Shown in pieces: positions 12,756-35,427 of a stretch of 64,000 nucleotides of DNA; position 1 is the stretch's first letter; the number at the start of each line of letters is the position of its first letter. The notes below the pieces were generated by a model. It saw only the letters and a list, made by a program, of their open reading frames with translations. It had not been told where the DNA came from and searched no databases. A program made the translations under genes and the position numbers. Origin of the DNA: a virus; the IMG/VR virus record IMGVR_UViG_3300020472_000012, positions 50,374 through 114,373 of that record. One strand, written 5' to 3'.

Positions 12756-13729
12756 GTTTTGACGAAACCTTTGAACGATTTAATGGGAAGTTCCTAGATG
12801 AAACTTCTTATGATACTGTTGTATCTTCTATTGGAGTAGAAGAAGATATTATCAAAATCTACAAACCAACTGGTTCATTGTTTGATAAACCATTACTTGC
12901 ATGTATAGTAAAGAATACCTATCAAGGTGACACTTACCATCAAGTTAAAGACACTTTGTATTCTATAGATGATACTTCTACCATGAGAGCAAACGCTGCC
13001 GGCCCTATCGACCACGAAGAAATGAAAGCAAAAGGATTGATAGAAGGTAAAGATTATGTTCTAAGAACACCAAATTCATATTATCCATTAAAGAAGAATG
13101 GTGAATTCAATCGTATTGCAGAAGCAAATGCAATTCATTCTGTCTTTGCTGGATATAAGAGAGGTAGATTTACTGGTATGATAGGATTATCAAACTGGTG
13201 TGAAAAGAAATCTAATATAGATAAATGGAATACAATGAAAAAGATTGCAGTTGTTAACGAACAAGCACTTAAGAAAGGTTGTCCAGATATCTGGAAACTA
13301 CAAAGAACATATGCAGATGAATGTATAGAAGAGAAGTATCATTTAGGTGGTGCTCCAATTACTACATTATCTGCAAACAAATATACCAGTGAAGGGACTG
13401 CAAAGATGTCTGCACATATTGATGGTAAAGACCTAGAGTTTGGTATGACTACAATGTGTGTATTCAGATTAGGTAACTTTGGTGGTGCATATCTAACATT
13501 CCCAAGATATGGAATTGCAATTGAGGCTGATGATGGGGATGTATTGATTGCAGATTCAAACGAATTACATGGAGTCACCAAGATAGAAGGTGATGGAATA
13601 AGATTATCGTGTGTTGCATACTGTTCAACTGATGTTGCTACTAAAGGACAAGGTGGTAAATCAGAGAAGGCAATAGGACAACATGCAAGTAAGTATCAAG
13701 AAAAAGGTAGTCTTGACTCATTCTTATGA
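12728..13729 (+). CDS. TET/JBP-family 5-methylpyrimidine dioxygenase
   Basis: TTLSAN, HxD (AHIDGKD), GGAYLTFP, GDVLIAD.NELHG, RLSCVAY; adjacent to the C5-MTase. Confidence 0.85.
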   Translation: MEFTAPKDLGFDETFERFNGKFLDETSYDTVVSSIGVEEDIIKIYKPTGSLFDKPLLACIVKNTYQGDTYHQVKDTLYSIDDTSTMRANAAGPIDHEEMKAKGLIEGKDYVLRTPNSYYPLKKNGEFNRIAEANAIHSVFAGYKRGRFTGMIGLSNWCEKKSNIDKWNTMKKIAVVNEQALKKGCPDIWKLQRTYADECIEEKYHLGGAPITTLSANKYTSEGTAKMSAHIDGKDLEFGMTTMCVFRLGNFGGAYLTFPRYGIAIEADDGDVLIADSNELHGVTKIEGDGIRLSCVAYCSTDVATKGQGGKSEKAIGQHASKYQEKGSLDSFL

Positions 13730-13890
13730 AGAAGATTTGGACTATATGGAAGTATGCAATAGGTAGTTTTTCAGATGAGAAAACAGAAGACTACGATAAC
13801 CATGTTGCAATAATAAGAACATTTGTTGTTGGTATTAATGTGATATGTGCATTTTTTATTATGGCAAACATAATACACAATTGGTGATTA

Positions 13891-14685
13891 ATGGATAGAT
13901 TATACATTCCAACATATGACAGAGTTGGTAAACAACTTGCATTTGATAGTCTTCCAAATAAATGGAAGGACAAAGCAATATTAGTTGTACATCCAGACGA
14001 AGTACATGAGGGTTATCCTACATTATCATGTCCAGTTCAAGGGACTGGTATTGCACCAGTTAGAGAATGGATTGCACAACATGGTCAAGGAACTAGATAT
14101 GGTGTCATAGATGATGACATAGAATTTGTATATACTAGAAAAGAAGACGAAGAAGGCCCAAGTAATATCAAACTAGATGATAACATGTTTGACTCTATGA
14201 TTAATATCTTCAATGACTGGATGGATATGGGGTATATGCACTGTGGAGCAGATGCATCTTGGAATCCACCTACAAGAGATAAAGACCACAAAGAGTGTGG
14301 TAGAATATGTGGTAATGTATTCTATGATGGAGAAAGACTACCAGTTGATGATATAGACTGGACTGGATTACCAATTGCAGAAGACTATTATGTCACCTTA
14401 CAGTTATTAACTATGGGGTTTCCTAATATGATATCTTATAGGGCTAGAGTTAATCCAAATGAAACCCAAGCAAAAGGTGGTTGTTCCACCTTTAGAAGTT
14501 TAGAGATTCATAATGAATCTATGAGAGAATTACAGAGAAGGTTCCCACAATTTGTAAAACTAAGAGAAAAGATTGCAAAGAATAGTGGAGAATGGTCTAA
14601 TAAAGTGAAACTGGCTGCAACCATTTCATGGAAAGAGGCATATAAGTCTTCTCAAGTATCGACAATAACAGATTTTATGGTATAA
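13891..14685 (+). CDS. TET-associated (GREB1/TAGT-like) GT-A glycosyltransferase
   Basis: IPTYDR, GIAPVREWI, IDDD, EDYYVTLQLL, GGCS. Confidence 0.8.
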   Translation: MDRLYIPTYDRVGKQLAFDSLPNKWKDKAILVVHPDEVHEGYPTLSCPVQGTGIAPVREWIAQHGQGTRYGVIDDDIEFVYTRKEDEEGPSNIKLDDNMFDSMINIFNDWMDMGYMHCGADASWNPPTRDKDHKECGRICGNVFYDGERLPVDDIDWTGLPIAEDYYVTLQLLTMGFPNMISYRARVNPNETQAKGGCSTFRSLEIHNESMRELQRRFPQFVKLREKIAKNSGEWSNKVKLAATISWKEAYKSSQVSTITDFMV

Positions 14686-14686
14686 T
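14659..14686 (+). promoter_or_regulatory. Class II promoter
   Basis: TCGACA-N16-TATAAT with TG extension; ATG at 14693. Confidence 0.6.
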
Positions 14687-14692
14687 ATTAAT

Positions 14693-14872
14693 ATGAGTGA
14701 AAATATAATAGAAATAATTAGAATGTTCCGAACTCTGGAAACAGAAGATATGGATGTAGTCCTATCTGCACTGAAAGAGATTAAAGACAAGAGGGATGGT
14801 GAAATTACTGTGTCGTCTAAGTCTAATCGAAATGAGTTTGGAGTACCATTTATAGTGCCACCAAAAGAATGA
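14693..14872 (+). CDS. Small hypothetical protein (59 aa)
   Basis: Read by hand; ATGA overlap with gp62. Confidence 0.5.
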   Translation: MSENIIEIIRMFRTLETEDMDVVLSALKEIKDKRDGEITVSSKSNRNEFGVPFIVPPKE

Positions 14873-15246
14873 ACCCTTTCGACTTTGTTAATTCAGTAAC
14901 ATTTACAAAGGAAGATATCATGGTAGATGATATCTCAGAGAAAGAATACGCTCCTTATATCACAAATAGGACATTATCCTACCATCAAGATTGCATACTC
15001 TATGCTAACGAAATGAATCGTAGACACCACCTAAATAGTCGTCTTCAATTTCATTATTTCCTAAATACTCTTAGAAAAAGAAAAAGGTTTGCTAAATGGG
15101 CAAAACCGAATGTCTTGGACGATATGAAAGTCATCCAAGAGTATTATGGAGTCTCAAAATCTAAAGCGGAAGATTATATGAAACTTCTTTCTGCAAAAGA
15201 AATTGAGGAATTGAAAAACAGAATGAAAAAAGGTGGGAGACAATAA
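14869..15246 (+). CDS. 62: Clamp loader small subunit gp62
   Basis: PFDFVNS, Y.PYI.NR.LS, ANEMN, RKRKRFAKW. Confidence 0.92.
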   Translation: MNPFDFVNSVTFTKEDIMVDDISEKEYAPYITNRTLSYHQDCILYANEMNRRHHLNSRLQFHYFLNTLRKRKRFAKWAKPNVLDDMKVIQEYYGVSKSKAEDYMKLLSAKEIEELKNRMKKGGRQ

Positions 15247-15249
15247 ACA

Positions 15250-15648
15250 ATGAGCTACGACCTCTCCGATATGGTAGAGGTAGAGTTGAAAGAATCCGAT
15301 GACTTTCTAAAGGTCAAAGAGACGCTGACACGAATTGGTGTGGCATCTCGTAAAGAAAAGATACTCTATCAATCGTGTCATATCTTACATAAACGAGGAA
15401 GATACTATCTTGTACACTTCAAAGAACTCTTTGCATTAGATGGAAAAGAGTCTTCTATAGTGGAATCAGATATTGGAAGACGAAATGCAATTGCCAGACT
15501 TCTTGAAGAATGGGGATTGATTAAAATCATTTCCAACAATGCTGAAACACCACTTGCACCAATGAGTCAGATTAAGGTTTTACCCTATAAAGAAAAAACA
15601 GAGTGGGAACTTATTCCGAAATACAACATTGGTGTGGTGAGTAAATGA
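15250..15648 (+). CDS. regA: Translational repressor RegA
   Basis: DFLKVKETLTRIG, LYQSCHILHK, VHFKELF. Confidence 0.96.
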   Translation: MSYDLSDMVEVELKESDDFLKVKETLTRIGVASRKEKILYQSCHILHKRGRYYLVHFKELFALDGKESSIVESDIGRRNAIARLLEEWGLIKIISNNAETPLAPMSQIKVLPYKEKTEWELIPKYNIGVVSK

Positions 15649-16514
15649 ATGAACAAGTAAGAGTCATCAAGTTTACTGGAAAGAACAAAAACAAAGACAA
15701 TGTTCCCAACATGGAGTTAAGGAACAGAGTCATGAGTAAAGTTTTTAACAGAACAGAAAAAGAAAGAAGAATTCTATTTGCAAAGTGTGCTCAAGCTGCA
15801 TACTGGAATAAAGCAGATGGAAAAGAATTTGGTAAACAGTTTGGATGGAAAGCACATCAGTATATCGATATTGAAGGTGCTCAAGTTCATATTTGGCATG
15901 ATGCAGAAGACTTAATCATTGCAGCGAGAGGTACAGAACCTACTCAGATGAATGATATCTATGCAGATTTAGAAATATTCAAATCCGACTCATTCACTGG
16001 AGTTGGTCAAATCCATCAAGGATTTAGAGAAGAAGTAGATAAAGTTTGGGACTCAATTCTTTCCAGAGTAGAAAAGTATGGAAGGAAAGGTAGAGTTGCA
16101 AAGAAAATTTGGGTAACAGGACACTCGCTCGGTGGTGCAATGGCAACACTTATTGCATCTCGTCTTGAGTATGTGAATAAATATGATGTAGATACACTCT
16201 ACACTTATGGTTCACCTAGAGCGGGTGGCCCTAAGTTTGCCAAATGGTGCAATACTCATTTGAACCACCAAAGGTTTGTAAACAACAATGATGTTGTACC
16301 TTGTGTTCCTTCTGTATTCAGATGGAGACACAATGGAAGATGCAAGTACATCAAGTCTGATGGAACAGTAACAGACTTAGGAAGATGGTCGATGGAAAGA
16401 ATCAAGGACAAAGGGTGGGGACTATTAACAACAATAATAAAAGGAAGATTAGACTTTGTTGCAGACCATAATATAGTTGACTATATTAAACATCTGGAAA
16501 AGGATAATGCATGA
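15645..16514 (+). CDS. Class 3 lipase
   Basis: RGTE, HQGF, TGHSLGGA nucleophile, YGSPR, DVVP, C-terminal His. Confidence 0.88.
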   Translation: MNEQVRVIKFTGKNKNKDNVPNMELRNRVMSKVFNRTEKERRILFAKCAQAAYWNKADGKEFGKQFGWKAHQYIDIEGAQVHIWHDAEDLIIAARGTEPTQMNDIYADLEIFKSDSFTGVGQIHQGFREEVDKVWDSILSRVEKYGRKGRVAKKIWVTGHSLGGAMATLIASRLEYVNKYDVDTLYTYGSPRAGGPKFAKWCNTHLNHQRFVNNNDVVPCVPSVFRWRHNGRCKYIKSDGTVTDLGRWSMERIKDKGWGLLTTIIKGRLDFVADHNIVDYIKHLEKDNA

Positions 16515-16517
16515 TAA

Positions 16518-16892
16518 ATGAAGTGGTTATTGACAGTTTTATTTTTTATGTCAGCTGCGGGCTCGTGTGATGCAGCCATAAAAGAGTGGACTGAAAAAGA
16601 AAGAAAACTCTATCATTCATACCTAACATTATCAGCAATCGACACATATCAAACATTTAAAATGATTGATTGTCAGAAACAACCATCTTGTCCTTTTGTA
16701 GAAATGAATCCTATAATAGGCAGTCATCCATCTAAAGAAAGATTATTGGCTGTTAAGTTTATAGGTAATGCAGTAATCTATAAACTGTTAGACAACAATG
16801 CTAACGACAGAGAATTTGCATTAAAGTTAATGAATGGTCTACAAGGATTCGTAGTAACTCACAATGGTATTTACTACATGAGAAGGTTTTAA
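16518..16892 (+). CDS. Hypothetical exported/membrane protein
   Basis: Signal peptide, D..QT...EMNP motif. Confidence 0.6.
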   Translation: MKWLLTVLFFMSAAGSCDAAIKEWTEKERKLYHSYLTLSAIDTYQTFKMIDCQKQPSCPFVEMNPIIGSHPSKERLLAVKFIGNAVIYKLLDNNANDREFALKLMNGLQGFVVTHNGIYYMRRF

Positions 16893-18144: not shown

Positions 18145-18152
18145 TACTTACG

Positions 18153-18392: not shown

Positions 18393-18405
18393 TCGAGGTA
18401 GATAT

Positions 18406-18564
18406 ATGGACTGGTTAAAAAGCAGATTGTCAGAAGCTTCCACTTTAGATGGTGGAGTTATCTTGGCATTATCACTTGGTATCCTGTTCTTAGGCCCAAT
18501 CCTTAAATACTTAGCATATGCTGGAGTATTATATGGTGGTTGGAAAATGCTTAAGAAAGGGTAA
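18406..18564 (+). CDS. Small membrane protein
   Basis: GAGG RBS, two short TM segments. Confidence 0.6.
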   Translation: MDWLKSRLSEASTLDGGVILALSLGILFLGPILKYLAYAGVLYGGWKMLKKG

Positions 18565-18984: not shown

Positions 18985-18992
18985 TATAAATA
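18985..18992 (+). promoter_or_regulatory. T4-type late promoter of the curli-like operon
   Basis: TATAAATA followed by an AAGGAG RBS. Confidence 0.7.
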
Positions 18993-19017
18993 CTAATGAT
19001 ATATTGAAGGAGAGATT

Positions 19018-19332
19018 ATGTCTTTTATTGAATTTGTGACCGATGTGGGCGTCCCCATTGGGGGTGCTGTAGTCATGGGATTTTTTATCTTCATGGTACT
19101 TAAACAAATATTTGAGGGTATCATAGATGATATAAGGACTCTAACTGGATTTTGTAAGATGTTAGAGGACAGAGCAAGAGTTGGTTGTAATGAACTGGTG
19201 AAGATAGACCTATTGGTAAGTAGTGCATTAGATTTAACACCACCAGTCGATAGAGTGGCTAGAGCAGAAAATTTCAGAACTGATGACAAAGGTAATCCAC
19301 AAAATGTTAAACTTGATGTGAGGAGAGACTAA
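19018..19332 (+). CDS. Membrane protein at the head of the curli-like operon
   Basis: N-terminal TM (VGVPIGGAVVMGFFIF); resembles the next ORF. Confidence 0.7.
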   Translation: MSFIEFVTDVGVPIGGAVVMGFFIFMVLKQIFEGIIDDIRTLTGFCKMLEDRARVGCNELVKIDLLVSSALDLTPPVDRVARAENFRTDDKGNPQNVKLDVRRD

Positions 19333-19643
19333 TGGAAACATTGGCAGATGCTATCTCACAATTTGGGTTCCCTGTTGTTATGGCTGCGGGAATGGGTTAC
19401 TTTATCTATTTTATCTGGAGATTTGTAACAGATAAGATAGAACCAGAACTTGAAAAGATGCATTTTGCATTAATCAAGTGCATCGATGCAAATAGAATGT
19501 TAGATAATGATATGATTCGTCTTCAACAAAAAGTAAATGTTGTACTTGAGTACAGAGAAAGGCAAGATGTTCTTGCAGACGCAGAAGAAAAAGAAGCACT
19601 TGCAGAGGTAAAGAAGAATGAAAGAGGGAAAAGTAAGAAGTAG
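19332..19643 (+). CDS. Membrane/coiled-coil protein in the curli-like operon
   Basis: FGFPVVMAAGMGYFIYF TM followed by a coiled coil. Confidence 0.7.
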   Translation: METLADAISQFGFPVVMAAGMGYFIYFIWRFVTDKIEPELEKMHFALIKCIDANRMLDNDMIRLQQKVNVVLEYRERQDVLADAEEKEALAEVKKNERGKSKK

Positions 19644-20148
19644 AATAGAATTAATAACCTTACTGGGCATATTTGTAATATCATTATTTGGATTGACACC
19701 AAAAGCATATGGTGATGAACTTACACAAAAGTTTAAAAATCCTAGCTTTAGTGGGATAGGAACATCGGCACACTATCTTACAATTGACAATCAAGAAAAA
19801 GCAAGAAGAGATAAGATAAAAGAAGACATCGAGGCTGCACTTCTGGCTGCTGAAAGAGCAGAAGATAATACAGTCCTTGCAAAATTCATCAGAAATTTAG
19901 AAAGCAGAATTTATTCACAATTAAGTAAACAGTTGGTAGAGTCATTATTCAGTAATGAAGATGGTGCATCATTTGGTAGTTTCACTTTAGAAGATTCGGT
20001 TATAACATACGAAAGAAGAACATGTATCGTAGGTGTTGATGCTGGTTGTACAGAAGGTCAAGAAATAATTGTTCTAAACATAACTAATTCTGATGGTTCA
20101 ACAACAACTATCTCAATTCCTATTGGAGTAGGAAACTGGGGTGGATAA
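19618..20148 (+). CDS. csgF: Curli assembly protein CsgF-like
   Basis: Signal peptide, then ELTQKFKNPSFSG (CsgF F.NP.FGG), F..NLESRIYSQLS, terminal TTTISIP. Confidence 0.8.
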   Translation: MKEGKVRSRIELITLLGIFVISLFGLTPKAYGDELTQKFKNPSFSGIGTSAHYLTIDNQEKARRDKIKEDIEAALLAAERAEDNTVLAKFIRNLESRIYSQLSKQLVESLFSNEDGASFGSFTLEDSVITYERRTCIVGVDAGCTEGQEIIVLNITNSDGSTTTISIPIGVGNWGG

Positions 20149-21070
20149 TCAAAGAAAAAATCTTTTAATAGCATTATCTGGACTTTTATTAATGTCTGGA
20201 TGTGCATCTATGGTATCTCCTGGCGGGTTGTCAGACAGTAATTGTATAGAATTTATCGAATGTGTTGAAGAACCAGAAATAGTGGAACTTCCTACACATG
20301 AACAATTATTAAGTCTACCACCAGCAGATAAGAAACCAATAGTTGCAGTATACTCTTTCCCAGATAAGACTGGACAAAGAAAACAAAAAGATTCTGCAGC
20401 CTTATTCTCCACAGCAGTAACTCAAGGTGGTGAGACAATGTTAATAGATGCATTGAAAACTGCTGGTAATGGAACATGGTTTAGGGTTGTAGAAAGAGTT
20501 GGGGTTGACCACTTAACTCGTGAAAGGCAAATAGTAAGAACAACAAGAGAGCAATACAATGAAGACAAGACTGGTCTTGCACCATTGTTATTTGCTGGAA
20601 TGATTTTAGAGGGTGGTATCATAGGCTATGACACCAATCTCGAAACTGGCGGTTGGGGTGCGAGGACATTAGGCATCGGCAGTCAGCAGCAATATCGAAG
20701 GGATATAGTTACCATTTCGTTAAGAGCGGTATCTGTATTAACTGGAGAGATATTACTCAATGTCCAGACTTCAAAAACCATTTTATCTGTCGCAGGTGGT
20801 TTCGATGTCTTTAAATTTATTGATATGGATACTCAACTTGTAGAAGTTGAGAATGGAATGACAGAAAATGAATCAATAACTCGTTCAGTTAGAAGTGCCA
20901 TTGAGAAAGCAGTTTTAGAACTAATTTATCAAGGGGATGAAAAGGGTTATTGGAAAATAAATTGGCCTACAAATAAGATAATCGAAGGCAAAGTTGAAGA
21001 GTTAGTAGACGATGCAGAGATTATTGTAGTAGGTGAAGAAGAGGAAAATACAAATGAAAATGATAAATAA
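20141..21070 (+). CDS. csgG: Curli secretion channel CsgG lipoprotein
   Basis: Lipobox LMSGC, VAVYSFPDKTGQRK, FSTAVTQG, WFRVVER, EGGIIGYD. Confidence 0.92.
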   Translation: MDNQRKNLLIALSGLLLMSGCASMVSPGGLSDSNCIEFIECVEEPEIVELPTHEQLLSLPPADKKPIVAVYSFPDKTGQRKQKDSAALFSTAVTQGGETMLIDALKTAGNGTWFRVVERVGVDHLTRERQIVRTTREQYNEDKTGLAPLLFAGMILEGGIIGYDTNLETGGWGARTLGIGSQQQYRRDIVTISLRAVSVLTGEILLNVQTSKTILSVAGGFDVFKFIDMDTQLVEVENGMTENESITRSVRSAIEKAVLELIYQGDEKGYWKINWPTNKIIEGKVEELVDDAEIIVVGEEEENTNENDK

Positions 21071-21791
21071 ATTTTTATTATCTTTTACATTATTATTTAG
21101 TACATCTGTGGTTATGGGTGCAGTATCCTCATCTGACAATGAAATCTCATTAGAGCAAACTGGTGATACACTAACATTAACCATTGACCAAATTGGTTAT
21201 GGCAATAAGTTGTGTGGTACTTTAGGTTCTAATGTTTGTGCAAGTGATTGGACTATTGCTGGCACCACGCTGACGATTAACATCGACCAGATTGGTAACA
21301 GCAACAAAGTGATTGGTAACATCGACTTAGATACATCAGATATAGATTTAACATTTACTGGTGATACTAATAGTTGGACTTGGGATATAGGTGAAAGCGG
21401 AAGTTCAGATGACTCAGATTTGTTAGTTGACTTTACAGGTTCATCAAACACTGTTGATTTTAAACAGGGTTATAGTGCAGCTGCTGAAAGATTGGATTTC
21501 GATTTTGATGTTATTGGAGATTCTAATGTATTCGATATTGATATTGATGCAGATGATATGACATGGGATGTAGATATTACTGGAGACAGTAATAATGTAG
21601 TAACTACAATTTCTGATGGTTCAGACCATGAATTGAAGTTAGACCACACTGGAGATGGTGGAGACATTGATATAGTTATGTCTTCTGGAACATGTCCACA
21701 AGGAGTAAGTTCATGTTATTCAACCATAGATTTGGATATTACAAGTGATAATGCAACGATTACAATTAATCAAAAAGATACTGGGGATTAA
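21054..21791 (+). CDS. Secreted curlin-like beta-repeat protein
   Basis: Signal peptide; repeated IxQxGxxN / GDxN units. Confidence 0.65.
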   Translation: MKMINKFLLSFTLLFSTSVVMGAVSSSDNEISLEQTGDTLTLTIDQIGYGNKLCGTLGSNVCASDWTIAGTTLTINIDQIGNSNKVIGNIDLDTSDIDLTFTGDTNSWTWDIGESGSSDDSDLLVDFTGSSNTVDFKQGYSAAAERLDFDFDVIGDSNVFDIDIDADDMTWDVDITGDSNNVVTTISDGSDHELKLDHTGDGGDIDIVMSSGTCPQGVSSCYSTIDLDITSDNATITINQKDTGD

Positions 21792-22893
21792 TCTCCTACT
21801 CTTTAGTTTAGTATCGTATGCTGACAGTATTGGGGACATTACTGAACATAAGGGTAGTGCGGGATTAACCAGACAATCTGGGGAGTCCTTACCTACCGAT
21901 GTGGGGATTGACATTATGTCCTTAGACCATATAGTTACTGCTAATGGTCGAATGAAAATCCAATTTGTAGATGACACAAAACTTTCATTGACAGAACAGT
22001 CTGAGGTTACAATAGACGAATACTATTTTGACCCAGACCCATCTAAGAGTAAGATGGCAATGAGTTTTGTATCTGGTACTGCAAGGTTTGCTACTGGTAA
22101 ACTAGGACTTGTTCCTAGAGAGAATATAATAATTCAAACACCAACTGCGACCATTGGTATTAGAGGCACCGATTTCACTACAAGCGTAGATGAACTGGGA
22201 AGAAGCCTTGTAATATTGCTACCAGAAACAGAATGTACTATTGATGGAGATTGTTCTCCATCTGGTGAAATAACAGTTACGAATGATGGTGGGACTGTAA
22301 CTCTATCCGAAGCATACCAAGCAACAATGGTATCATCGTTTGACCAGAGTCCAGTTCAACCTGTAACTTTAGAAAATATAAATGTCAATATGATTGACAA
22401 TATGTTCATCGTCTCACCACCAGAAAAGATTGTAGAAGCGGTTGAGGATGAACAAGGGGAAGCTGATAATACAGACCCAGCAAGTATATTGGATTTTACT
22501 GATTTAGATGTAAATGAGTTAGATGAAGATAAACTTAAAGAAGAAGATATGGAGTTCACAGAGCTCGATATGGATTTATTAAATGTTGACTTTCTTCAAG
22601 ATTTATTAACTACGATTGAAGAAGTAGATGTTTTAAAAAAGAGAACTGGTGCAGATGACACTGGTAATATTGTAGGAACAGTATTAGGTTTTGATAAAGA
22701 TACTCAGTACAATACTATCATTGATAAGGGTGCTGGAACAATATGGTTTTATAGAGAAGTAAATGGAATCATATCAGTTAAAGTACCTATTAGTGCCAAT
22801 TTAACATTGGAGTCAGAAAATGAAGGGAAGAGGAATCTTATTACTGTTAACGATGGTGAGTCTATCGTTATCATCATTCGTCAGGGCGGGTGA
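21745..22893 (+). CDS. FecR-domain periplasmic protein
   Basis: D.I.T..GR..I.F.D.T.L.L...SEV.ID, TPTATIGIRGTDF; start uncertain. Confidence 0.82.
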   Translation: MIMQRLQLIKKILGINLLLFSLVSYADSIGDITEHKGSAGLTRQSGESLPTDVGIDIMSLDHIVTANGRMKIQFVDDTKLSLTEQSEVTIDEYYFDPDPSKSKMAMSFVSGTARFATGKLGLVPRENIIIQTPTATIGIRGTDFTTSVDELGRSLVILLPETECTIDGDCSPSGEITVTNDGGTVTLSEAYQATMVSSFDQSPVQPVTLENINVNMIDNMFIVSPPEKIVEAVEDEQGEADNTDPASILDFTDLDVNELDEDKLKEEDMEFTELDMDLLNVDFLQDLLTTIEEVDVLKKRTGADDTGNIVGTVLGFDKDTQYNTIIDKGAGTIWFYREVNGIISVKVPISANLTLESENEGKRNLITVNDGESIVIIIRQGG

Positions 22894-23629
22894 TGAACAC
22901 AATCACATACATATAGACCAAGTACAAAGTGGAGATAACTTTGAACTAGGTATTGACCAAATTGGTTATGAGAACTTAATTAAGTTCTCTTTTAACCATG
23001 ATGATAATACAGTAAACATACTACAATCTGGAAACAACATGTATATTGGATATACAGATGCATGGGGTTCTGGTTATAGTTGGGGTGGAGATTTAGATGG
23101 ATTGAGAAATGATGTTGATATTCGTCAAAAGTGTTCACTTACATCCTGTAATGAAACAGATTTTCAATTTCATATCTGGGGTGATGACAACGAAGTTGTC
23201 TTTGGTCAAGGATATGAAAACAATAATAGTTTAACACCAAATTGGAATTACGATGGTAATGAGCCTGGTGGAAACTTTGTCAGACTAGACATACATGGTG
23301 ATGATAACAAATTCAAAGGAAGTCAGAAACAAGATTCAAGTTCAGTTAGTCATACTGCAACAGTAAACATATATGCAGACAATAATGATGTATTTTTAAA
23401 GCAAATGCAAAATGGAAACAAAACTTTCACGATGACTATCTATAATGACTACAATGAAGTTGCAGTTACACAAAAAAACAATGGGGCTCATACTGCAACT
23501 ATTACATTAAGAGGAACCCAACCAACAGATTTAAACTTATCACAATCTGGAAACACAACACAAACTTATTCATTAAACCAGAATTGTGTAACAGCAGGTG
23601 GATGTTCAGTCACAGTAAATCAGAACTAA
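22820..23629 (+). CDS. Secreted curlin-like beta-repeat protein
   Basis: Signal peptide; Q/N/G-rich repeats (IDQIGYEN, ILQSGNN, QSGNTTQ). Confidence 0.65.
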   Translation: MKGRGILLLLTMVSLSLSSFVRAGDEHNHIHIDQVQSGDNFELGIDQIGYENLIKFSFNHDDNTVNILQSGNNMYIGYTDAWGSGYSWGGDLDGLRNDVDIRQKCSLTSCNETDFQFHIWGDDNEVVFGQGYENNNSLTPNWNYDGNEPGGNFVRLDIHGDDNKFKGSQKQDSSSVSHTATVNIYADNNDVFLKQMQNGNKTFTMTIYNDYNEVAVTQKNNGAHTATITLRGTQPTDLNLSQSGNTTQTYSLNQNCVTAGGCSVTVNQN

Positions 23630-23643
23630 ACAATATATGAACA

Positions 23644-23853
23644 GTGAAAGACAAGACCGAAAAATATACGACCCTAGTAAGAATGCCGTACAAGGATGCT
23701 ATTCGTATAATCCTACGCACAATTGATTATCATAATCATATGATGGTAGTAGACAAAGACAATTATTACTTTCACGAAAAACAGATGAGACGATTAAAAG
23801 TATGGATGATAGATATGAAAGATTTCATCCACGAAGAAGAAAATAATGGGTAA
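23644..23853 (+). CDS. Hypothetical protein
   Basis: ORF track; overlaps the cyclase start. Confidence 0.55.
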   Translation: MKDKTEKYTTLVRMPYKDAIRIILRTIDYHNHMMVVDKDNYYFHEKQMRRLKVWMIDMKDFIHEEENNG

Positions 23854-25741
23854 ATTTTTAACATCCACTTGGATGGTTGGATTAGTTCTAATTGGACTAA
23901 TAGGGATAAGAACACTAGACCCAGAACCAGTAGAAAGGATTAGGAACATTCAGTTCGATTCTTTCCTAACATCATACGAACCTACCATTTCAGATAACAT
24001 TATCCTACTAGATGTAGGAGAAAACTCTCTAGAAGAATTTGGCCAATGGCCGTTTCCCAGACAACAGTTTGCCCAAATGATTTCTGATTTAAGGAATGCA
24101 AATGCTGGAATGATAGGTATGACTGTTATGTTTCCAGAACCAGATAGGTTTGGTGGAGACCAAATACTTGCATCTTGGATAAATGGTAATGGAATAATAT
24201 TAGGACAAACATCTTCACCTAAAGGTAGAAGTGATGTTGCACCATTTGTAGGAACTGCAACATTAGGTGAAGGTAGTGCATATGATTTTGCATATGAATA
24301 CAAGGGTATTGTAACTAATCTACCAGAGTTTGAATCTGCATCTTGGGGTGTAGGTATGATGAACTCATCACCAGAAGTGGATGGTATTACCAGAAGAGTT
24401 CCATTAGTTACTCAAGTATCTGGTCAACTATATCCAAGTTTCCCAATAGAAGTAGTTCGTGCAAATGCAGATAAGAAATCCTACACTATGAAAGTAGAAA
24501 CTACAGGTATAGAGAACTTTAGAATACCACCATACGAACCAATAGTAACAGATTATGCTGGAAGCATCTGGTTAGATTGGTCAAAAGATTTTATTCGATA
24601 TGAATATGGGGAGACTCTTCCGAATCTTCAAGGGAAGACAGTGATTGTTGGGGTGACAGCAGAGGGCATTGTTCCCATTGTTTCGACTCCGAAGGGTTCA
24701 GTTTATCCACACGAAATTCAGGCTTCTGCGATTGAGACAATAATGGGTGGGGTTTCCATTTCTCGTCCAAATTGGGGTTCCCTTCTGGAAATAAGTTTAA
24801 TTCTAATTGCTTCTCTGATGATGATGTTGTCTTTTGGTCGTCTTGGTTTCGCATTAACCACTCTCTTCTCTTTGACTGCTGTCTCTGGAGTTGTTTATTC
24901 CTCATTCTACTTCTGGAATTCATCGATGTTCCTTATAGATTTTACATTTCCCATTATAACATTGATACTCATATTTAGTCAATTAAGTTTTAATAACTTC
25001 TATAAACAGTTTAAATTAAGACAACAAATTAAAGGACAGTTTGGTACTTACCTATCACCAGATATGGTTGATATGTTAGTTAAAGACCCATCATTGATGA
25101 GACTAGGTGGTGATAGGAAAGAAATGACCTTCTTGTTCGCAGATATTGTAGGGTTTACTCCAATAAGTGAAAAATATATGCAAAAAGATGACCCAGAAGG
25201 GCTGGTAGAACTTATAAATATGTTCTTAGATAGGTTAACTAAAATTATCCTTAAGAATGGCGGAACAGTCGATAAATATATGGGCGACTGTATAATGGCC
25301 TTCTGGAATGCTCCTTTACCATGTGAAAACCATGCAGAGATGGCAGTTAGGACTGCAATTGAGATGGAATTAGTATGTGAGGAGTTAAACCAAGAGTTAC
25401 AAGAAAAAGGATTAGATTTACCACTAGTTAAAATAGGCACTGGAGTAAATACAGGGCCTTGTATAGTGGGGAATATGGGAAGTGAGTCTCGATTTGATTA
25501 TTCTGTTGTTGGAGATGCTGTTAACTTGGGTGCAAGACTTGAAGTACAAACTAGAGAGTATGATACACCTATCCTACTATCTGAATATACTTATATGCAG
25601 ACAGAAGGTATTTCATGCAAAGATTTGGGTGAAATAAAAGTTAAGGGTAAAGATGAACCTGTAACCATATATGCACCATTGTTTGATGCAAAAAGTGGTA
25701 ATAGAAAAGAAATTAGGAAATTATATAAAGATGGCATATAG
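23846..25741 (+). CDS. CHASE2-domain class III adenylate/guanylate cyclase
   Basis: GQWPFPR, DGITRRVPL (CHASE2), three TMs, FADIVGFT, DKYMGDCIM, GDAVNLGARLE. Confidence 0.93.
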   Translation: MGKFLTSTWMVGLVLIGLIGIRTLDPEPVERIRNIQFDSFLTSYEPTISDNIILLDVGENSLEEFGQWPFPRQQFAQMISDLRNANAGMIGMTVMFPEPDRFGGDQILASWINGNGIILGQTSSPKGRSDVAPFVGTATLGEGSAYDFAYEYKGIVTNLPEFESASWGVGMMNSSPEVDGITRRVPLVTQVSGQLYPSFPIEVVRANADKKSYTMKVETTGIENFRIPPYEPIVTDYAGSIWLDWSKDFIRYEYGETLPNLQGKTVIVGVTAEGIVPIVSTPKGSVYPHEIQASAIETIMGGVSISRPNWGSLLEISLILIASLMMMLSFGRLGFALTTLFSLTAVSGVVYSSFYFWNSSMFLIDFTFPIITLILIFSQLSFNNFYKQFKLRQQIKGQFGTYLSPDMVDMLVKDPSLMRLGGDRKEMTFLFADIVGFTPISEKYMQKDDPEGLVELINMFLDRLTKIILKNGGTVDKYMGDCIMAFWNAPLPCENHAEMAVRTAIEMELVCEELNQELQEKGLDLPLVKIGTGVNTGPCIVGNMGSESRFDYSVVGDAVNLGARLEVQTREYDTPILLSEYTYMQTEGISCKDLGEIKVKGKDEPVTIYAPLFDAKSGNRKEIRKLYKDGI

Positions 25742-26162
25742 TAAAAAAGTAGTAGATAGATTCAATAATGTTTTAAACAATCCTCAAAAACATTCAGTTG
25801 GAAGGTTTGACCCAACAGACCCTAATGTTGCAACTGGAATGGTTGGTGCTCCAGCATGTGGAGATGTAATGAAACTAGACCTAAAACTAGATATTGATGG
25901 GTTAATAGAAGATGTCAAATTTAAAACATATGGGTGTGGAAGTGCAATTGCATCATCTAGTCTATTTGTTGATATGTTAATAGGTAAAACTATTGAACAG
26001 GCTAAACTCATTAAAGATAAAGAGATTGCAGAGATATTAGAATTGCCACCAATTAAACTACATTGTAGTGTACTTGCAGAGGACTGTATTAGACAAGCAG
26101 TGGAACACTGGGAAGAGAAGTCTGCACATAGAAAACACAATGAACTAGGTGGACATGCATAA
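25731..26162 (+). CDS. iscU: Fe-S scaffold IscU
   Basis: MAYSKKV, GAPACGDVM, FKTYGCGSAIASS, LPPIKLHCSVLAED. Confidence 0.95.
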   Translation: MAYSKKVVDRFNNVLNNPQKHSVGRFDPTDPNVATGMVGAPACGDVMKLDLKLDIDGLIEDVKFKTYGCGSAIASSSLFVDMLIGKTIEQAKLIKDKEIAEILELPPIKLHCSVLAEDCIRQAVEHWEEKSAHRKHNELGGHA

Positions 26163-27892: not shown

Positions 27893-27893
27893 C

Positions 27894-29170: not shown

Positions 29171-31660
29171 ATGCACTTTTATACTAATGTCCAGAGATAC
29201 AGGAATTGGATTCTTGTAAGAGAATTTAAGGATGGGGTTAATAAGCCCAGACGAATTCCATATAAACCGACATTATATCTTCCGACCAATAAAGATAGTT
29301 CATTCAGAAGTATCAATGGCAAAAACTTAGAACCCAAGAAATTTACCAACATGAGTGGTGTTAGACCATTCATGGATAAGTATAAGGATGTTGAAGGGTT
29401 TGATATCTATGGTTTAGATAGATATGAATATGCATGGGTAACAGAAACATTTCCACAAGATATTGAGTGGAGTTTTAGAAATATCAAAGTTATGAACATT
29501 GATATTGAGTGTGAATGTGAACATGGATTTCCAGAACCTATCGTTGCCCCAGAACCAATCAATGCAATAACATTTAAACTATTTGGTGAACCTACCAAAT
29601 ATGTTTTTGGAACTCAGCCTTGGAATCATGGTGATAAGAACATTCGTTACTTTGAATGTAAGAATGAGGTACATCTACTTAAAACATTCCTAGATGAATA
29701 TCGTAAGGTTATGCCAGATATCATTACTGGTTGGAATGTTGAAACATTTGATATTACATATCTGATGAATCGTATTACCAGAATGATTGATAGTAGACAT
29801 GCAGATATGTTATCGCCTTGGAATATAACTTCTTCTAGAGAATGGGAAAGTTTTGGTTTAGGTGGTAATAAACAACAAACTTATGACCTTATGGGTGTAG
29901 AAGTTATAGATTACCTACAACTTTATAAGAAGTTTACATTCAAGAACAGAGATAGTTATCGATTAGAAAACATTGCACAAATTGAACTTGGTGAAGGTAA
30001 GTTAGATTATTCAGAGTTTGGTGCAATGCATTTGTTCTATAAACAGAACTATCAGAAGTTTTTAGAGTATAATGTTCGTGATGTGGACTTAGTAGAAAGA
30101 CTTGATGATAAGTTAGGTCTAATGACTTTAATGATTCAGATGGCTTATACTGCAAAGTGTAACTATAGTGATACTTTTGGACAAGTGAAGTATTGGGATT
30201 TACTTATCTGGAATCGATTACGAAAACAAAACATTATTATTCCACCAAGACCACATGGAACCAAATCACAAAAGTTTGTTGGTGCATATGTAAAAGAACC
30301 ACAAGTAGGATTGCATAATTGGGTGGTATCATTTGATTTGAATAGTCTATATCCACATTTGATTATGCAGTATAATATCAGTCCAGAGCAATTGGATAAA
30401 ACTGGTACTCAACATGATATTGATGAATTACTTGAAAAGAAAGTAGACTTTGATTATAGTAATCATCTTGCAGTTTGTCCTAATGGTGCAAGATTCAGAA
30501 AGAATAGACAGGGATTTCTTCCAGAGATTCTTGAATCTCTATATGATGAGAGAGTCATGTGGAAGAACAAGATGATTGAATTGCAAAGAGAATATGAAGA
30601 TACTGATGATGCAGAACAGAAGAAGTTTTTAAACAGAGAGATTGCAATTGCACACAACAACCAAATGGTTCGTAAGATTTCTTTGAACAGTGCTTATGGT
30701 GCATTGGGTAATCAGTGGTTTAGGTACTACGATTTGATGATGGCAGAAGCAGTTACAACTAGTGGTCAACTCGCAATTAAATGGGTTGAACAAGCAGTTA
30801 ACTCCTATCTAAATGAAGTTCTAGGTACAGAGGATGATTATGTTGTTGCAATTGATACTGACTCAATCTATGTACGATTTGATGAATTAGTTAATAGGGT
30901 TAATCCAAAGAACCCTATTGATTTCTTAGACAAGGTTTCTAATGGTAAGATGCAAGAAGTGATTAACCATTGTTATGATGACCTTGCACAATATACAAAT
31001 GCATTTCAGAATAAGATGGTAATGGGTAGAGAGGTAATTGCAGATAAAGGTATCTGGACTGCCAAGAAAAGATACATTCTTAATGTACATGACAATGAGG
31101 GTGTAAGATTACATGAACCTAAACTTAAGATGATGGGTATTGAAACTGCAAAGTCTTCTACACCAGCATGGGTTCGTGGTAGATTAGAAGATGCATTGAC
31201 AGTTGTTATGAAGGGTGATGAAAAACTTGTACATGAGTTTGTAGAGAATGCAAGAGAAGAATTTAAGAAACAACCAATAGAAGATATTGGTTTCCCTAGA
31301 GGAGTGAATGGTGTTGTTGAATATGCAAATCCAAAAACAATTTACAAGAAAGGAACACCTATTCATGTTCGTGCATCATTATTGTATAACCACCATGTAA
31401 AAAAACATGGAAAGGAATTGGTATACCAGTTAATTAATAATGGTGAGAAAATGAAATTTGTTTACCTTAAAATACCAAATCCTACTGCTGAGAATGTCAT
31501 TGGTTTTATAAATACTTTACCGAAGGAGTTTGAATTGGCAAAATACATAGACTATGACTTACAGTTCGAGAAATCATTTGTAGAACCTTTTAAACTTATT
31601 CTGGAGAAGATTGGGTGGTCAACAGAACCGACATCTTCTTTAGAGGAATTTTTTGGGTAA
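29171..31660 (+). CDS. 43: Family B DNA polymerase gp43
   Basis: Exo DIE, TGWNV..FD, SFDLNSLYP, KISLNSAYG, DTDS, KKRY; C-terminal SSLEEFFG. Confidence 0.98.
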   Translation: MHFYTNVQRYRNWILVREFKDGVNKPRRIPYKPTLYLPTNKDSSFRSINGKNLEPKKFTNMSGVRPFMDKYKDVEGFDIYGLDRYEYAWVTETFPQDIEWSFRNIKVMNIDIECECEHGFPEPIVAPEPINAITFKLFGEPTKYVFGTQPWNHGDKNIRYFECKNEVHLLKTFLDEYRKVMPDIITGWNVETFDITYLMNRITRMIDSRHADMLSPWNITSSREWESFGLGGNKQQTYDLMGVEVIDYLQLYKKFTFKNRDSYRLENIAQIELGEGKLDYSEFGAMHLFYKQNYQKFLEYNVRDVDLVERLDDKLGLMTLMIQMAYTAKCNYSDTFGQVKYWDLLIWNRLRKQNIIIPPRPHGTKSQKFVGAYVKEPQVGLHNWVVSFDLNSLYPHLIMQYNISPEQLDKTGTQHDIDELLEKKVDFDYSNHLAVCPNGARFRKNRQGFLPEILESLYDERVMWKNKMIELQREYEDTDDAEQKKFLNREIAIAHNNQMVRKISLNSAYGALGNQWFRYYDLMMAEAVTTSGQLAIKWVEQAVNSYLNEVLGTEDDYVVAIDTDSIYVRFDELVNRVNPKNPIDFLDKVSNGKMQEVINHCYDDLAQYTNAFQNKMVMGREVIADKGIWTAKKRYILNVHDNEGVRLHEPKLKMMGIETAKSSTPAWVRGRLEDALTVVMKGDEKLVHEFVENAREEFKKQPIEDIGFPRGVNGVVEYANPKTIYKKGTPIHVRASLLYNHHVKKHGKELVYQLINNGEKMKFVYLKIPNPTAENVIGFINTLPKEFELAKYIDYDLQFEKSFVEPFKLILEKIGWSTEPTSSLEEFFG

Positions 31661-31664
31661 CTGA

Positions 31665-31691
31665 TTCTCTCCTTCTTAATTAAGGAGAGAA
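31665..31691 (+). promoter_or_regulatory. Hairpin sequestering the RBS of the nuclease gene
   Basis: TTCTCTCCTT / AAGGAGAGAA perfect 10-bp stem. Confidence 0.65.
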
Positions 31692-31693
31692 AA

Positions 31694-32110
31694 ATGAACC
31701 CACACATTTATAGAGCAGACATAACGAGAGTTGTAGATGGCGATACATGTGATGTGACACTTCATTTAGGATTTGATATATTATATAAAGGTAGAGTAAG
31801 GCTGACTGGAATTGATACACCAGAATCTAGAACCAGAGACCTTGAAGAAAAGAAATTTGGACTTGCATCCAAAGAATACTTCAAGGAATGGGTTGCAAGA
31901 TTTGATTCTGTATTAGTTGAGTCAACTGAGAAAGGTAAGTTTGGTAGAATACTTGGTAGGATTTATAACCCAGATATGTCTGAATGTTATAACGACAAGA
32001 GTATAGAAGACCATCATGCAGTACCTTATAATGGTGAAAACAAAGACCTAGTAGAGTCACAACATATGGCCAACAGAGAATGGTTGACAGAACAAGGACT
32101 CGTGGTATAA
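31694..32110 (+). CDS. Thermonuclease (SNase-like)
   Basis: RVVDGDT, RVRLTGIDTPE, GKFGRILG. Confidence 0.9.
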   Translation: MNPHIYRADITRVVDGDTCDVTLHLGFDILYKGRVRLTGIDTPESRTRDLEEKKFGLASKEYFKEWVARFDSVLVESTEKGKFGRILGRIYNPDMSECYNDKSIEDHHAVPYNGENKDLVESQHMANREWLTEQGLVV

Positions 32111-32137
32111 TAGTATTATATTTGAGGATTTTATATT

Positions 32138-33184
32138 ATGGATTTATTGAAAGACCTTGCAAAGGCAAGTGGTAATGACCTTGCATCAGTAGTAGACGAT
32201 GGTATCGTTGCTGGTGATGTGGATGGTTATTTAGACACTGGTTCATATATATTGAATGCACTTTTAAGTGGTTCAATATATGGTGGACTAGCATCAAACA
32301 AGATTACAGCATTAGCGGGAGAGTCTTCCACTGGAAAGACTTTCTTTGCGTTAGGAATTTGTCAAAAGTTCCTAGAAGACAACCCAGATAGTGCAGTCAT
32401 TTACTTTGAAAGTGAATCTGCACTAACTAAAGATATTATAGTCGAAAGGGGTATTGACCCTAAAAGGATTATGATTGTCCCAGTAGTTACGATTGAACAG
32501 TTTAGAACTGAAGCAGTTCGTATACTAGACCAATACGATAAGACACGAAAAGAAGACCAGAAAATATTATTTGTTCTGGACTCATTAGGTATGTTATCAA
32601 CTGAAAAAGAGGTAACAGATGTAGAGTCTGGAAAGATGGTTCGTGATATGACAAAGGCACAAGTAACCAAAGGTGCATTCAGAGTATTAACTTTGAAACT
32701 AGGAAAGGTAGGTGTCCCTATGATTGTTACGAACCATACCTACGATAAGATTGGTTCCTTATACCCAGAGAAAGAAATGGGTGGTGGAAGTGGTCTTAAG
32801 TATGCAGCTTCTAGTGTAGTATTCTTATCGAAGAGAAAAGAAAAAGAAGGTACAGAAGTTATAGGTAATATCATTCATTGTAGGAACTGGAAATCTAGAC
32901 TTACAGTAGAAAACAAAATGGTCGATGTTCGATTGACTTATGATAAAGGTTTATCTAGACATTATGGACTTCTTGAACTTGCAATTAAGTATGGTATCTT
33001 TAAACAAGTATCAACAAGGATTGAACTTCCAGATGGGAAAACTCAGTTTGGAAAAACTATTAACAACAATCCAGAAACTTATTTCACACCAGAAATCTTA
33101 GAACAATTAGATGAGTGTGCCAAGAAAGAGTTTAGATATGGTGCAGAAGTAGAAGAAATTGAAAGTGAAGTAGATGCAGAATAG
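32138..33184 (+). CDS. uvsX: RecA-like recombinase UvsX
   Basis: [30 protein letters not shown]. Confidence 0.95.
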
Positions 33185-34559
33185 GTTAGAATTATTAATA
33201 CTTAAGAATCTCTTTACGAGTGATGAATACATTCGTAAGGTGATTCCATATGTTAGGGATGAATTCTTTTCTGAGAGAGAAGAGAGATTAATCTTTGTTA
33301 ATATTAAAGAATACTTTGAGAAGTATAATAAGAATCCAACTCATGAAGCATTAACAATTCAAATGAATGAGGCAAGTGGTCTCAATCAAGATGAACTATC
33401 CAGTGCATTACACATTGTATCTCAATGTAAATCATCAATAGAAGAAACACCACACGAATTTCTATTAGATGAAACAGAGAAATGGTGTAAAGACAGAGCA
33501 GTTTATAATGCAGTAATGGATTCTATTACCATCTTAGATAAGAATTCAAAAAGAGATAAGGGTGAGATTCCAGAGTTACTTAAGGATGCACTTTCAGTAT
33601 CTTTTGACCAACATATTGGTCATGATTGGATGGAAAATGCAGATGCAAGGTATGAATTTTATCATACAGAAGAAGAAAAGATTCCATTTGATTTAGATTT
33701 ACTTAATAAGATTACAAAGGGTGGAATGCCCAACAAGACTTTGAATATTATAATGGCTGGAACTGGGGTAGGTAAATCCTTGTTCATGTGTCATTGTGCA
33801 GCCAACAATCTCATGATGGGTAAGAATGTACTTTACATATCTATGGAAATGAGTGAGGAAAAGATTGCAGAAAGAATTGATGCAAACTTAATGAATATTC
33901 CATTACAAGAACTTTCAGATTTACCTAAACCGATGTATGATAAGAAGATTAAATCTATTAGGGATAAGACAGTTGGAAGGTTAGTGGTTAAGGAATACCC
34001 AACAGCAGCTGCACATACTGGACATTTTAGACATCTATTACAAGAGTTAAATCTTAAGAAAGACTTTGTTCCAGATGTAATCTATATTGATTATCTAAAC
34101 ATATGTGCATCATCAAGAATCAAGCCTGGAAGTAATGCAAACACATATACTTATGTTAAGAGTATTGCAGAAGAGGTTAGAGGTCTTGCAGTAGAATACG
34201 ATATTCCAGTTATGAGTGCAACTCAAACAAATAGAACTGGATTTGTTTCTACAGATGTAGGATTAGAAGATACATCAGAATCCTTTGGATTACCAGCAAC
34301 TGCTGATTTGATGATTGCATTGATATCAACAGAAGAACTGGAAGACCTTGACCAGATAATGGTTAAACAATTAAAGAACAGATATAATGACCCATCATAC
34401 TACAGAAGGTTTGTAGTTGGTGTAGATAGAAGTCGTATGAAGTTGTATGATTGTGAACAATCTGCACAAGATGAGTTACATGATTCTGGGCCAGCTTTCG
34501 ACAACTCTGATACTGGAAAAAGGATATCAGAAGAGAAAACAGATGGTTGGAACATATAA
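33174..34559 (+). CDS. 41: Replicative helicase gp41
   Basis: [38 protein letters not shown]. Confidence 0.96.
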
Positions 34560-35427
34560 TAAGGTCTTACCTTTTAAAGACGATGAACGAGTAATTGACC
34601 AATTTGGTTGGACACTAACATCAGTCATTAAACCTACTAAAGCATCCAAAAAGAAATGGAAGGATGCATATCTAGAAAATACAGAACAGAGAAGAAGTGA
34701 TGATGCTGAATACCTAAGTGGATTAAAATTCAGTGAGTTCCATGCTGGACTATGTGAAGACATTGTACATTATTGGAGTATGGTTGGTGGTAAAATTGTA
34801 GACCCATTTGCTGGAAGATTAACAAGGGCATTCGTTTCTGCATCATTAGGAAGGTCATACGAAGGTTATGATGTATCACCTACAACAGTAAAGAATGTTA
34901 ATGAACATTTAGATAAACATTCTATATCTGATGCAATTGTTAAAGAGGGTGATGGTTGTATGATGCAACTCACTTATGATGAAAGTGCAGATTTAGTTAT
35001 GACTTGTCCACCATATCATAGATTAGAAGCATATGAATCTGCAACAGGTCAGTTATCTGATGTAAAGGGGTATCACCATTTCTTAGAAAGAATTAATGAA
35101 TGTGGAACGAACATAGAAAGAGTTTTAAAGCCTGGTGGGTTTTGTGTCTGGATATGTGGAGACTGGAGAGAAGATGGCAAGATGAGGTCTTTTCATTCAG
35201 ATGTAATAAACATGTTTACATTTAATGCTGGTCTTAAACTCCACGACACAGTAATTATAGAAAACCAATCACCATTTGCAGCTTTGCAATTAGGTAAGGT
35301 TGCATCAAAAAGATATACAAGTAAAGTACATGAATATATGTTAGTGTTTAGAAAAGAGGGTGAGATAGTTCCTACTTCAAATAAGATTAAGTTACACGAA
35401 GAAAGTAGTTTAGAGGATTTCTTCTAA
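34543..35427 (+). CDS. Amino (N4-C or N6-A) DNA methyltransferase
   Basis: DPFAG SAM-binding motif, TCPPY catalytic motif, RVLKPGG, HEY; C-terminal SSLEDFF. Confidence 0.8.
   Translation: MVGTYNKVLPFKDDERVIDQFGWTLTSVIKPTKASKKKWKDAYLENTEQRRSDDAEYLSGLKFSEFHAGLCEDIVHYWSMVGGKIVDPFAGRLTRAFVSASLGRSYEGYDVSPTTVKNVNEHLDKHSISDAIVKEGDGCMMQLTYDESADLVMTCPPYHRLEAYESATGQLSDVKGYHHFLERINECGTNIERVLKPGGFCVWICGDWREDGKMRSFHSDVINMFTFNAGLKLHDTVIIENQSPFAALQLGKVASKRYTSKVHEYMLVFRKEGEIVPTSNKIKLHEESSLEDFF

Follow-up and report, generated by a model that had tools for sequence, protein, structure and literature searches.

The stretch of DNA analysed here (hereafter the window) is 64,000 nucleotides (nt) long and covers positions 50,374 to 114,373 of the IMG/VR virus record IMGVR_UViG_3300020472_000012, i.e., the right end of a viral contig of 114 kb. 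All of its genes lie on the + strand, and the GC content is about 35%. The contig belongs to a T4-like marine myovirus, and the family-B DNA polymerase (PolB, gp43) encoded in the window is 49% identical to cyanomyovirus gp43. In the replication region the genes follow in the order gp45, gp44, an oxygenase-like open reading frame (ORF), a C5-cytosine methyltransferase (C5-MTase), a TET/JBP-type dioxygenase (hereafter TET), an ORF of 53 amino acids (aa), a TAGT glycosyltransferase (GT), gp62 and regA. As this cassette is flanked by gp44 and gp62, the hypermodification genes sit inside the clamp-loader operon. Further downstream come gp43, UvsX, a gp41-type helicase, an N6/N4 amino-methyltransferase (amino-MTase) and another 2-oxoglutarate (2OG) oxygenase, while gp55 is located just upstream of the window. 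Here, we describe a short C-terminal tail which the polymerase shares with three DNA-modifying enzymes, TET, GT and the amino-MTase, and which probably docks these enzymes on the gp45 sliding clamp. The four tails are:

13706..13726, + strand: TET tail GSLDSFL (G343-L349), proposed clamp-interaction peptide, a conserved motif
14659..14682, + strand: GT tail STITDFMV, proposed clamp-interaction peptide, with similar endings in homologues
31634..31657, + strand: gp43 tail SSLEEFFG, counterpart of T4 gp43 ...SLDFLFG, with [SA]SL[DE]xFF[GS] in relatives
35404..35424, + strand: amino-MTase tail SSLEDFF, proposed clamp-interaction peptide, supported by family endings and tail-class switching

The genes to which the tails belong, and those of the clamp and its loader, are:

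8640..9308, + strand: gp45-type sliding clamp of 222 aa, on which the tails are proposed to dock (PF09116 gp45-slide_C, 48.8 bits at a cut-off of 25; phrog_223, 3.6e-69)
9437..10369, + strand: gp44, clamp-loader large subunit (phrog_168, 9.3e-123; PF21328 Gp44_lid)
11484..12755, + strand: C5-cytosine DNA methyltransferase, the first enzyme of the pathway, with no clamp-type tail (PF00145, 5.1e-49)
12680..13729, + strand: TET/JBP-type dioxygenase acting on 5-methylcytosine (5mC), probable start at 12728 (MEFTA...) (PF12851, 48.9 bits at a cut-off of 34.9)
13891..14685, + strand: TAGT glycosyltransferase, GT-A-like (PF20691, 33.6 bits at a cut-off of 27.5; phrog_842, 2.3e-36)
14869..15246, + strand: gp62, clamp-loader small subunit (PF16790 Phage_clamp_A, 52.6 bits)
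29171..31660, + strand: family-B DNA polymerase gp43 (phrog_262, 1031.7 bits; PF00136, PF03104)
34447..35427, + strand: N6/N4 amino-DNA methyltransferase, probably beta-class (PF01555, 70.7 bits at a cut-off of 26.7)

The genome thus codes for a gp45-type clamp together with its loader (gp44 and gp62), as expected if it also encodes gp45-client peptides, and the gp45 family profile matches the RB69 (1B77/1B8H) and T4 (1CZD, 6DRT) clamps with E of about 1e-30.

The four C-termini read exactly as the initial annotation had given them, and its remark that the motif is missing from the C5-MTase (which ends WNSLHQKT) and from two 2OG-oxygenase-like ORFs (10729-11493 and 35427-36071) is correct as well. 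The strict pattern, [ST][LI]xxF and a hydrophobic residue within the last nine residues, was defined after the data were seen; it is found in 4 of the 144 ORFs of the 114-kb contig, where 0.12-0.15 would be expected by chance (from motif density or composition). The sole four ORFs with this ending are the polymerase and three DNA-modifying enzymes of unrelated kinds. A looser h-x-x-F-h pattern (h, hydrophobic) gives 9 matches against 2.5 expected, and these include gp55 (GVENFY). We conclude that the tail observation is not due to chance. Since the strict pattern is post hoc and the looser one is less specific, the conservation and covariation among homologues described below form the stronger argument. 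The pattern was rejected as a stand-alone detector of clamp clients, as it also matches the baseplate protein PF12322 and a few spurious small ORFs.

TET and GT have the hallmarks of their families. The iron triad of TET (H246-x-D248 and H297) and its 2OG-binding R308 are invariant in 27 sequences. The C5-MTase gene overlaps the start of TET and the pair is kept in 65 of 80 related loci; by analogy with published clusters (PMC8256090), TET would oxidise the 5mC made by its neighbour. The GT gene lies 160 nt downstream of TET, and its acidic DxD-type motif D74-D75-D76 is invariant. Between the two lies the hydrophobic 53-aa ORF (13726-13887), which overlaps the TET stop codon and has no Pfam match. 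The beta class would have motif IV ahead of motif I, but in the amino-MTase motif I (DPFAGR) is found at residue 119 and motif IV (TCPPY) at residue 187; a Cys replaces the usual Asp, Ser or Asn in this motif IV and is invariant across the family. The long amino-MTase ORF overlaps the helicase gene by 113 nt, and its real start is probably Met33 at nt 34543. In the AlphaFold2 (AF2) models, the tails of TET and GT lie outside the confident folded core. The TET model has a mean predicted local distance difference test score (pLDDT) of 87.9, with the last strand at residues 307-314 and the core ending at about residue 317; beyond residue 320 the pLDDT is 63-73, and the final blocks score 72, 73 and 63. 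For GT, the mean is 89.7 and the last block, which holds the C-terminal residues, scores 51.

Tails of this kind are well conserved among homologues. In a sample of 80 IMG/VR loci with TET homologues (83 ORFs, 50-91% identity), G-[STN]-L-x-x-F-[FLI] was found within three residues of the end in 82 of the 83 ORFs. G343, L345 and F348 do not vary at all across 53 distinct sequences, in contrast to residues 334-342, which are variable and contain an indel; invariant motif positions behind a variable linker are the signature of a short linear motif. The C5-MTase has a conserved tail of its own (EPWNSLQQKT-type), and none of its 70 homologues matches the motif. Most GT homologues with at least about 35% identity end in [STN]-[LI]-x-x-F-[FML] (e.g., NTLEEFFS, NSLDSFF and SSLMEFFNE), and in TAGTs at 33% identity or less the tail is not present. 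Two GT homologues (P0296 and P0298) end with ...AYKSSQ(K), just before the position of the tail, and may be either natural tail-less variants or truncated gene calls. In the amino-MTase family, 57 of 120 members end in LxxF[FY] and the remaining ones in FW or WW.

The amino-MTase allowed us to follow enzyme and polymerase tails together. Close IMG/VR relatives of this enzyme amounted to one locus and the cultured-phage collection held remote homologues only, while the family alignment gave 80 loci. Its catalytic domain is still 52-68% identical in contigs whose polymerases are just 26-33% identical to that of the window. Despite this divergence of the polymerase, the tails of the two proteins encoded on one contig correspond to each other, and they do so in distant T4-like lineages. 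The pairs found were:

amino-MTase SSLEDFF with polymerase SSLEEFFG
amino-MTase STLEEFFG with polymerase ASLDSFFG
amino-MTase SNKFFDFNE with polymerase TAQKFFSF
amino-MTase SNKFFSYE with polymerase TAQKFFAF
amino-MTase AEKFFEF with polymerase ASEWFAF
amino-MTase ENKFFE with polymerase INKYFDF
amino-MTase GIEKFL with polymerase TIERFF
amino-MTase SKWW with polymerase IERFF (a loose match)

The enzyme tail thus switches with the polymerase tail between LxxFF, KFFxF and IERFF types. In a permutation over nine lineages, the observed score was 169 against a mean of 126 (standard deviation 13, p = 0.0014), a result behind which there are perhaps three to five independent switches as the lineages are partly dependent. 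In every TET-bearing lineage found, the tails are of the LxxF[FL] class, and agreement between TET and polymerase is visible at a fine scale only, for instance TET GNLEDFI with polymerase GNLMDFL.

The initial annotation had proposed modelling the gp45 trimer with each tail, and for the TET tail this prediction placed the peptide in the canonical pocket. The single complex predicted consisted of three gp45 chains (with a 15-row alignment) and TET residues 312-349. All three runs scored the gp45-TET tail complex at 0.65, and none of the three controls scored above 0.00. In calibration, 58 of 80 solved complexes and 2 of 110 mismatched pairs attained the mark, although a gp45 trimer with a TET fragment is a job different from those of the calibration. 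The three runs share at least 42% of contacts, with a partner pLDDT of at least 43. Of the 38-residue TET fragment, only residues 341-346 and 348-349 make confident contacts, and the gp45 residues contacted are 32, 35-39, 101-103, 105-108, 178, 181, 196-198, 211 and 213-216. The predicted site is the inter-domain pocket of gp45 next to the connecting loop and the C-terminus, and its alignment columns are mostly invariant in the 15 homologues.

The same kind of tail recurs on other enzymes of T4-like phages. A second 5mYOX clade, whose core is about 30% identical to the window TET and which has an N-terminal extension, was found at no fewer than 580 IMG/VR loci, where it adjoins either gp45/44/62/regA or gp41/UvsX/gp43. 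Among 80 sampled members, 70 have the ending S-L-[ED]-x-F-F, which resembles that of the polymerase encoded beside them (SSLEDFFG). The cultured Methylophilales phage Melnitz (Kyanoviridae), whose genome is complete, has a polymerase ending in TTLEDFFG and a TET ending in GNLNDFLGE. It also encodes a Mom-family protein (PF25680, 166.6 bits, E 7.4e-49) which ends in TATLEGFF about 55 residues past the domain. This Mom gene (L214:19571-20377; MZ577097.1 69571-70380) is annotated as 'protein of unknown function DUF465', and its sequence points to a further, unstudied DNA modification in this cultured OM43 phage. In a related contig (L210), gp55 ends in ANLEKFFL, the polymerase in ADLSSFF and GT in NSLEGFFGE.

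Phages without gp45 provided a control. The tail is absent from the TET-like proteins of Pelagibacter podophage HTVC112P, Nonlabens siphophage P12024L and Synechococcus phage S-CBWM1, and in these three phages no match to gp45 or to T4-type PolB was found. Remote amino-MTase homologues in non-T4 phages of Enterococcus, Bacillus and Fusobacterium do not carry the tail either. The gp45-positive Caulobacter phage Cr30 is ambiguous and was counted neither way: its TET-like protein ends in TGATLF and its polymerase in ADLSSLFD. The suggestion that the tail is restricted to phages encoding gp45 thus stands for the three gp45-less phages, but not in the converse direction, as a TET clade in gp45 phages lacks it (see below). 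Many of the remote non-T4 amino-MTase homologues are annotated as ParB fusions, and the tail-less TET-like gene of HTVC112P directly follows a ParB-like gene; the loci behind these two observations are H33, H34, H38, H39, H44, H52, L304:82-1416 and L216:842-1471. Because of these ParB-fused methyltransferases, the neighbour in HTVC112P and the published ParB-dependent 5mYOX (PMC13229309), ParB may take over the role of DNA-bound platform where a phage is devoid of gp45.

On the basis of motif conservation, covariation with the polymerase tail, recurrence on other enzymes, absence in the three gp45-less phages and the outcome of the docking, we consider it likely that the tails are gp45-interaction peptides which tether the modification enzymes to the clamp. 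Each tail would be a short helix-forming motif of hydrophobic and acidic residues, [G/S]-[S/T/N]-[L/I]-x-x-F-hydrophobic, on a flexible C-terminal extension, and its docking site would be the one expected for the tail of the phage's own polymerase. Clamps loaded by gp44/62 at primer termini and nicks would stay behind on the replicated DNA and there recruit the TET dioxygenase, the glycosyltransferase and the amino-methyltransferase. Such recruitment would raise the local enzyme concentration and allow one-dimensional scanning of the DNA. In the proposed pathway, the C5-MTase would make 5mC, TET would convert it into 5-hydroxymethylcytosine (5hmC) and GT would then form glycosyl-5hmC, with amino-methylation as a separate reaction; modification would be completed on the new phage DNA soon after synthesis. 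Actual binding, the gain in processivity, the timing and the discrimination against host DNA are what we infer from these data.

Several observations weigh against this reading. One is a clade of 307-aa TETs in gp45-encoding contigs which ends right after the catalytic core and has no tail, so not every enzyme has to carry one; the GT next to these tail-less TETs does have a tail. The idea that the modification enzymes ride the clamp agrees with all tests run, apart from this one clade. In the second 5mYOX clade, ten of the 80 sampled members have the ending xALDI, which differs from that of their polymerase, and amino-MTase tails of the KWW and NFW types resemble the polymerase IERFF only loosely. 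In the window itself, TITDFMV of GT departs furthest from the canonical form among the four tails. The gp55 protein of Melnitz has no such tail, and a T4 baseplate protein (PF12322) ends in LEG[IM]xxFF in Melnitz and in two related contigs. As for the docking, besides the departure from the calibration, its pass shows a likeness to the solved RB69 and T4 gp45-peptide complexes (1B8H, 6DRT) and may reflect memory of the model. Finally, published phage TETs and GTs were active in E. coli without gp45 and with a C-terminal His tag (PMC8256090), and the tail is therefore not needed for catalysis.

Other explanations of the tails were weighed against the same evidence. The shared tail could bind another partner at the replisome (gp44/62, gp32 or the host beta clamp), and the enzymes would then be recruited to the fork by a route other than gp45. 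Covariation and conservation do imply a common partner of the polymerase and the modifiers without identifying it; host beta-clamp motifs (QL[SD]LF) are likewise short hydrophobic peptides; and solution data for T4 put the gp43 tail at the open subunit interface, not in the crystal pocket (PMC2988020). However, the polymerase tail can be aligned residue for residue with the gp45-binding T4 gp43 sequence SLDFLFG (PMC6212786), the same motif is present on gp55 in relatives, the prediction put the TET tail in the invariant gp45 pocket with controls at 0.00, and the TET-like proteins of phages without gp45 are tail-less. We thus regard another partner as unlikely. A purely partner-independent origin, in which the tails would be a convergent feature of folding, solubility or turnover (a degradation signal or an intramolecular lid) that resembles the polymerase tail by chance, appears highly improbable. 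Short hydrophobic and acidic C-termini are common, the structural baseplate protein fits the pattern too, and a ParB-dependent 5mYOX lost part of its activity upon deletion of a C-terminal extension for a cause other than partner binding (PMC13229309). Chance and the intramolecular lid were nevertheless rejected, since the amino-MTase tail class switches together with the polymerase tail, which chance leaves unexplained, the same tail occurs on five unrelated enzyme folds in gp45 phages and is absent without gp45, and AF2 does not confidently pack the tails onto the catalytic cores.

It may also be asked what docking on gp45 would be for. The tails could bind gp45 mainly for regulation, by timing access to the clamp, by competing with gp43, gp55 and gp33, or by sequential hand-over on a single trimer. 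A gp45 trimer offers just three sites while at least five proteins here carry a matching motif, and the tail-less TET clade whose GT keeps its tail fits docking by some members of the pathway only. Sequence data, however, do not separate regulation from simple tethering, and the C5-MTase, the first enzyme of the pathway, speaks against a strict tool-belt of three enzymes as it is never tailed. A mainly regulatory role seems to us improbable.

The clamp-tethering proposed here has clear precedents. In T4, gp45 is bound by the C-termini of gp43, gp33 and gp55 and by an internal loop of the DNA ligase (LDFLF), and one such epitope can stand in for another (PMC2988020, PMC6212786, PMC9690074); the C-terminus of gp43, EKASLDFLFG, is an established gp45-binding epitope (PMC6212786, PMC2988020). 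Like the tails described here, the docking peptides of the T4 and RB69 clients (PDB 1B8H, 6DRT, 7D7D) are short, combine hydrophobic with acidic residues and are carried by a flexible linker at the C-terminus or close to it. The T4 polymerase tail SLDFLFG and SLEEFFG in the window are similar, the clamps are homologous, and the predicted site is the pocket between the two gp45 domains. The motif here is closer to the PCNA-interacting peptide (PIP) type, L-x-x-F-F, while that of T4 is of the LDFLF type. Moreover, the known T4 and RB69 clients are replication, repair and transcription proteins, whereas the predicted clients here are base-modifying enzymes, including Mom in Melnitz. The PCNA-DNMT1 system is similar in that a PIP-type motif targets a methyltransferase to a clamp on newly replicated DNA and so couples modification to replication (PMC9690074). 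This likeness is an analogy only, as the clamp lineage, the organism and the enzymes are unrelated; DNMT1 maintains a hemimethylated pattern, whereas the phage enzymes, an oxidase and a glycosyltransferase among them, would modify de novo.

Clusters of phage C5-MT, TET (5mYOX) and GT genes with the same cassette and the same enzyme families have been reported (Burke et al. 2021, PMC8256090; bioRxiv 10.1101/2023.12.21.572611). Both papers noted the neighbourhood with clamp-loader, gp45 and polymerase genes, as a genomic association only, and their full texts do not mention a C-terminal clamp peptide; the enzymes were assayed in E. coli or C-terminally His-tagged, where the tail would play no part. 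The T-dioxygenases of ParB-dependent 5mYOX systems (PMC13229309) are alike in that a modifying dioxygenase depends on the ParB CTPase, a member of a DNA-sliding-clamp family, and differ in that ParB is either a separate partner or fused to the enzyme, with no short peptide at the C-terminus involved; the authors of PMC13229309 leave open if this ParB works as a clamp. Our literature search found no description of a clamp peptide on phage DNA-modifying enzymes, and within the literature searched the claim of the initial annotation that such peptides are new for phage TET pathways holds. What is new are the dioxygenase, glycosyltransferase and Mom-family clients and the covariation test, while the mechanism itself is known.

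A few further observations concern replication proteins and the remaining genes. A tblastn search of the 114-kb contig with gp33 of Melnitz as query gave no homologue, and the contig is probably incomplete. An 83-aa ORF ending in KLDDFLISNQK was considered as gp33 but left unassigned, its PHROG matches being weak and of the lipoprotein type; it resembles the T4 LDFL clamp epitope and lies in the late region upstream of the window (L086:5700-5951, contig 25700-25951). The gp41 homologues beside the second 5mYOX clade (L225-L303) end in a conserved F-x-G-F-K-F, unlike the polymerase tail, and this ending may be a separate docking peptide, e.g., for the helicase loader or primase. The helicase of the window (33174-34559) ends in DGWNI. 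A block with curli-like CsgF/CsgG, FecR and adenylate cyclase occupies 18985-25741 of the window; as it is annotated in Melnitz too, it is conserved in this phage group.

Post-replicative hypermodification has to reach tens of thousands of sites per new genome within minutes and by two or three consecutive enzymes. To our knowledge, published work on phage TET pathways gives no explanation for the completeness of this modification. Post-replicative hypermodification of phage DNA could be organised around clamp docking in general, with ParB clamps where there is no gp45; we put this wider proposal forward tentatively and think it somewhat less probable than not. It would take in at least five unrelated families in T4-like phages (two 5mYOX/TET clades, TAGT, beta-class amino-MTases and Mom), whose tails would have been gained independently and kept matched while the clamp system diverged. 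In gp45-less phages, the same enzyme families would associate with ParB-type CTP-dependent DNA clamps. A borrowed sliding clamp would then let the whole genome be modified in one infection cycle, and the tail sequence would predict the clamp used.

If the tails do dock the enzymes on gp45, several consequences follow. C-terminal tags in biochemical work would mask the tail, the cognate clamp and loader might improve these enzymes as epigenomic tools, and from the presence of a tail one could predict which enzymes work on DNA at the fork. An experimental system is available in the cultured phage Melnitz, which shares the arrangement and of which both the complete genome and the OM43 host are known. 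Base-modifying enzymes would join the replication and transcription proteins among the gp45 clients, and prokaryotic viruses would have a counterpart of PCNA-DNMT1. Tethering to the clamp would provide these phages with a concrete and testable mechanism for complete hypermodification of their DNA.

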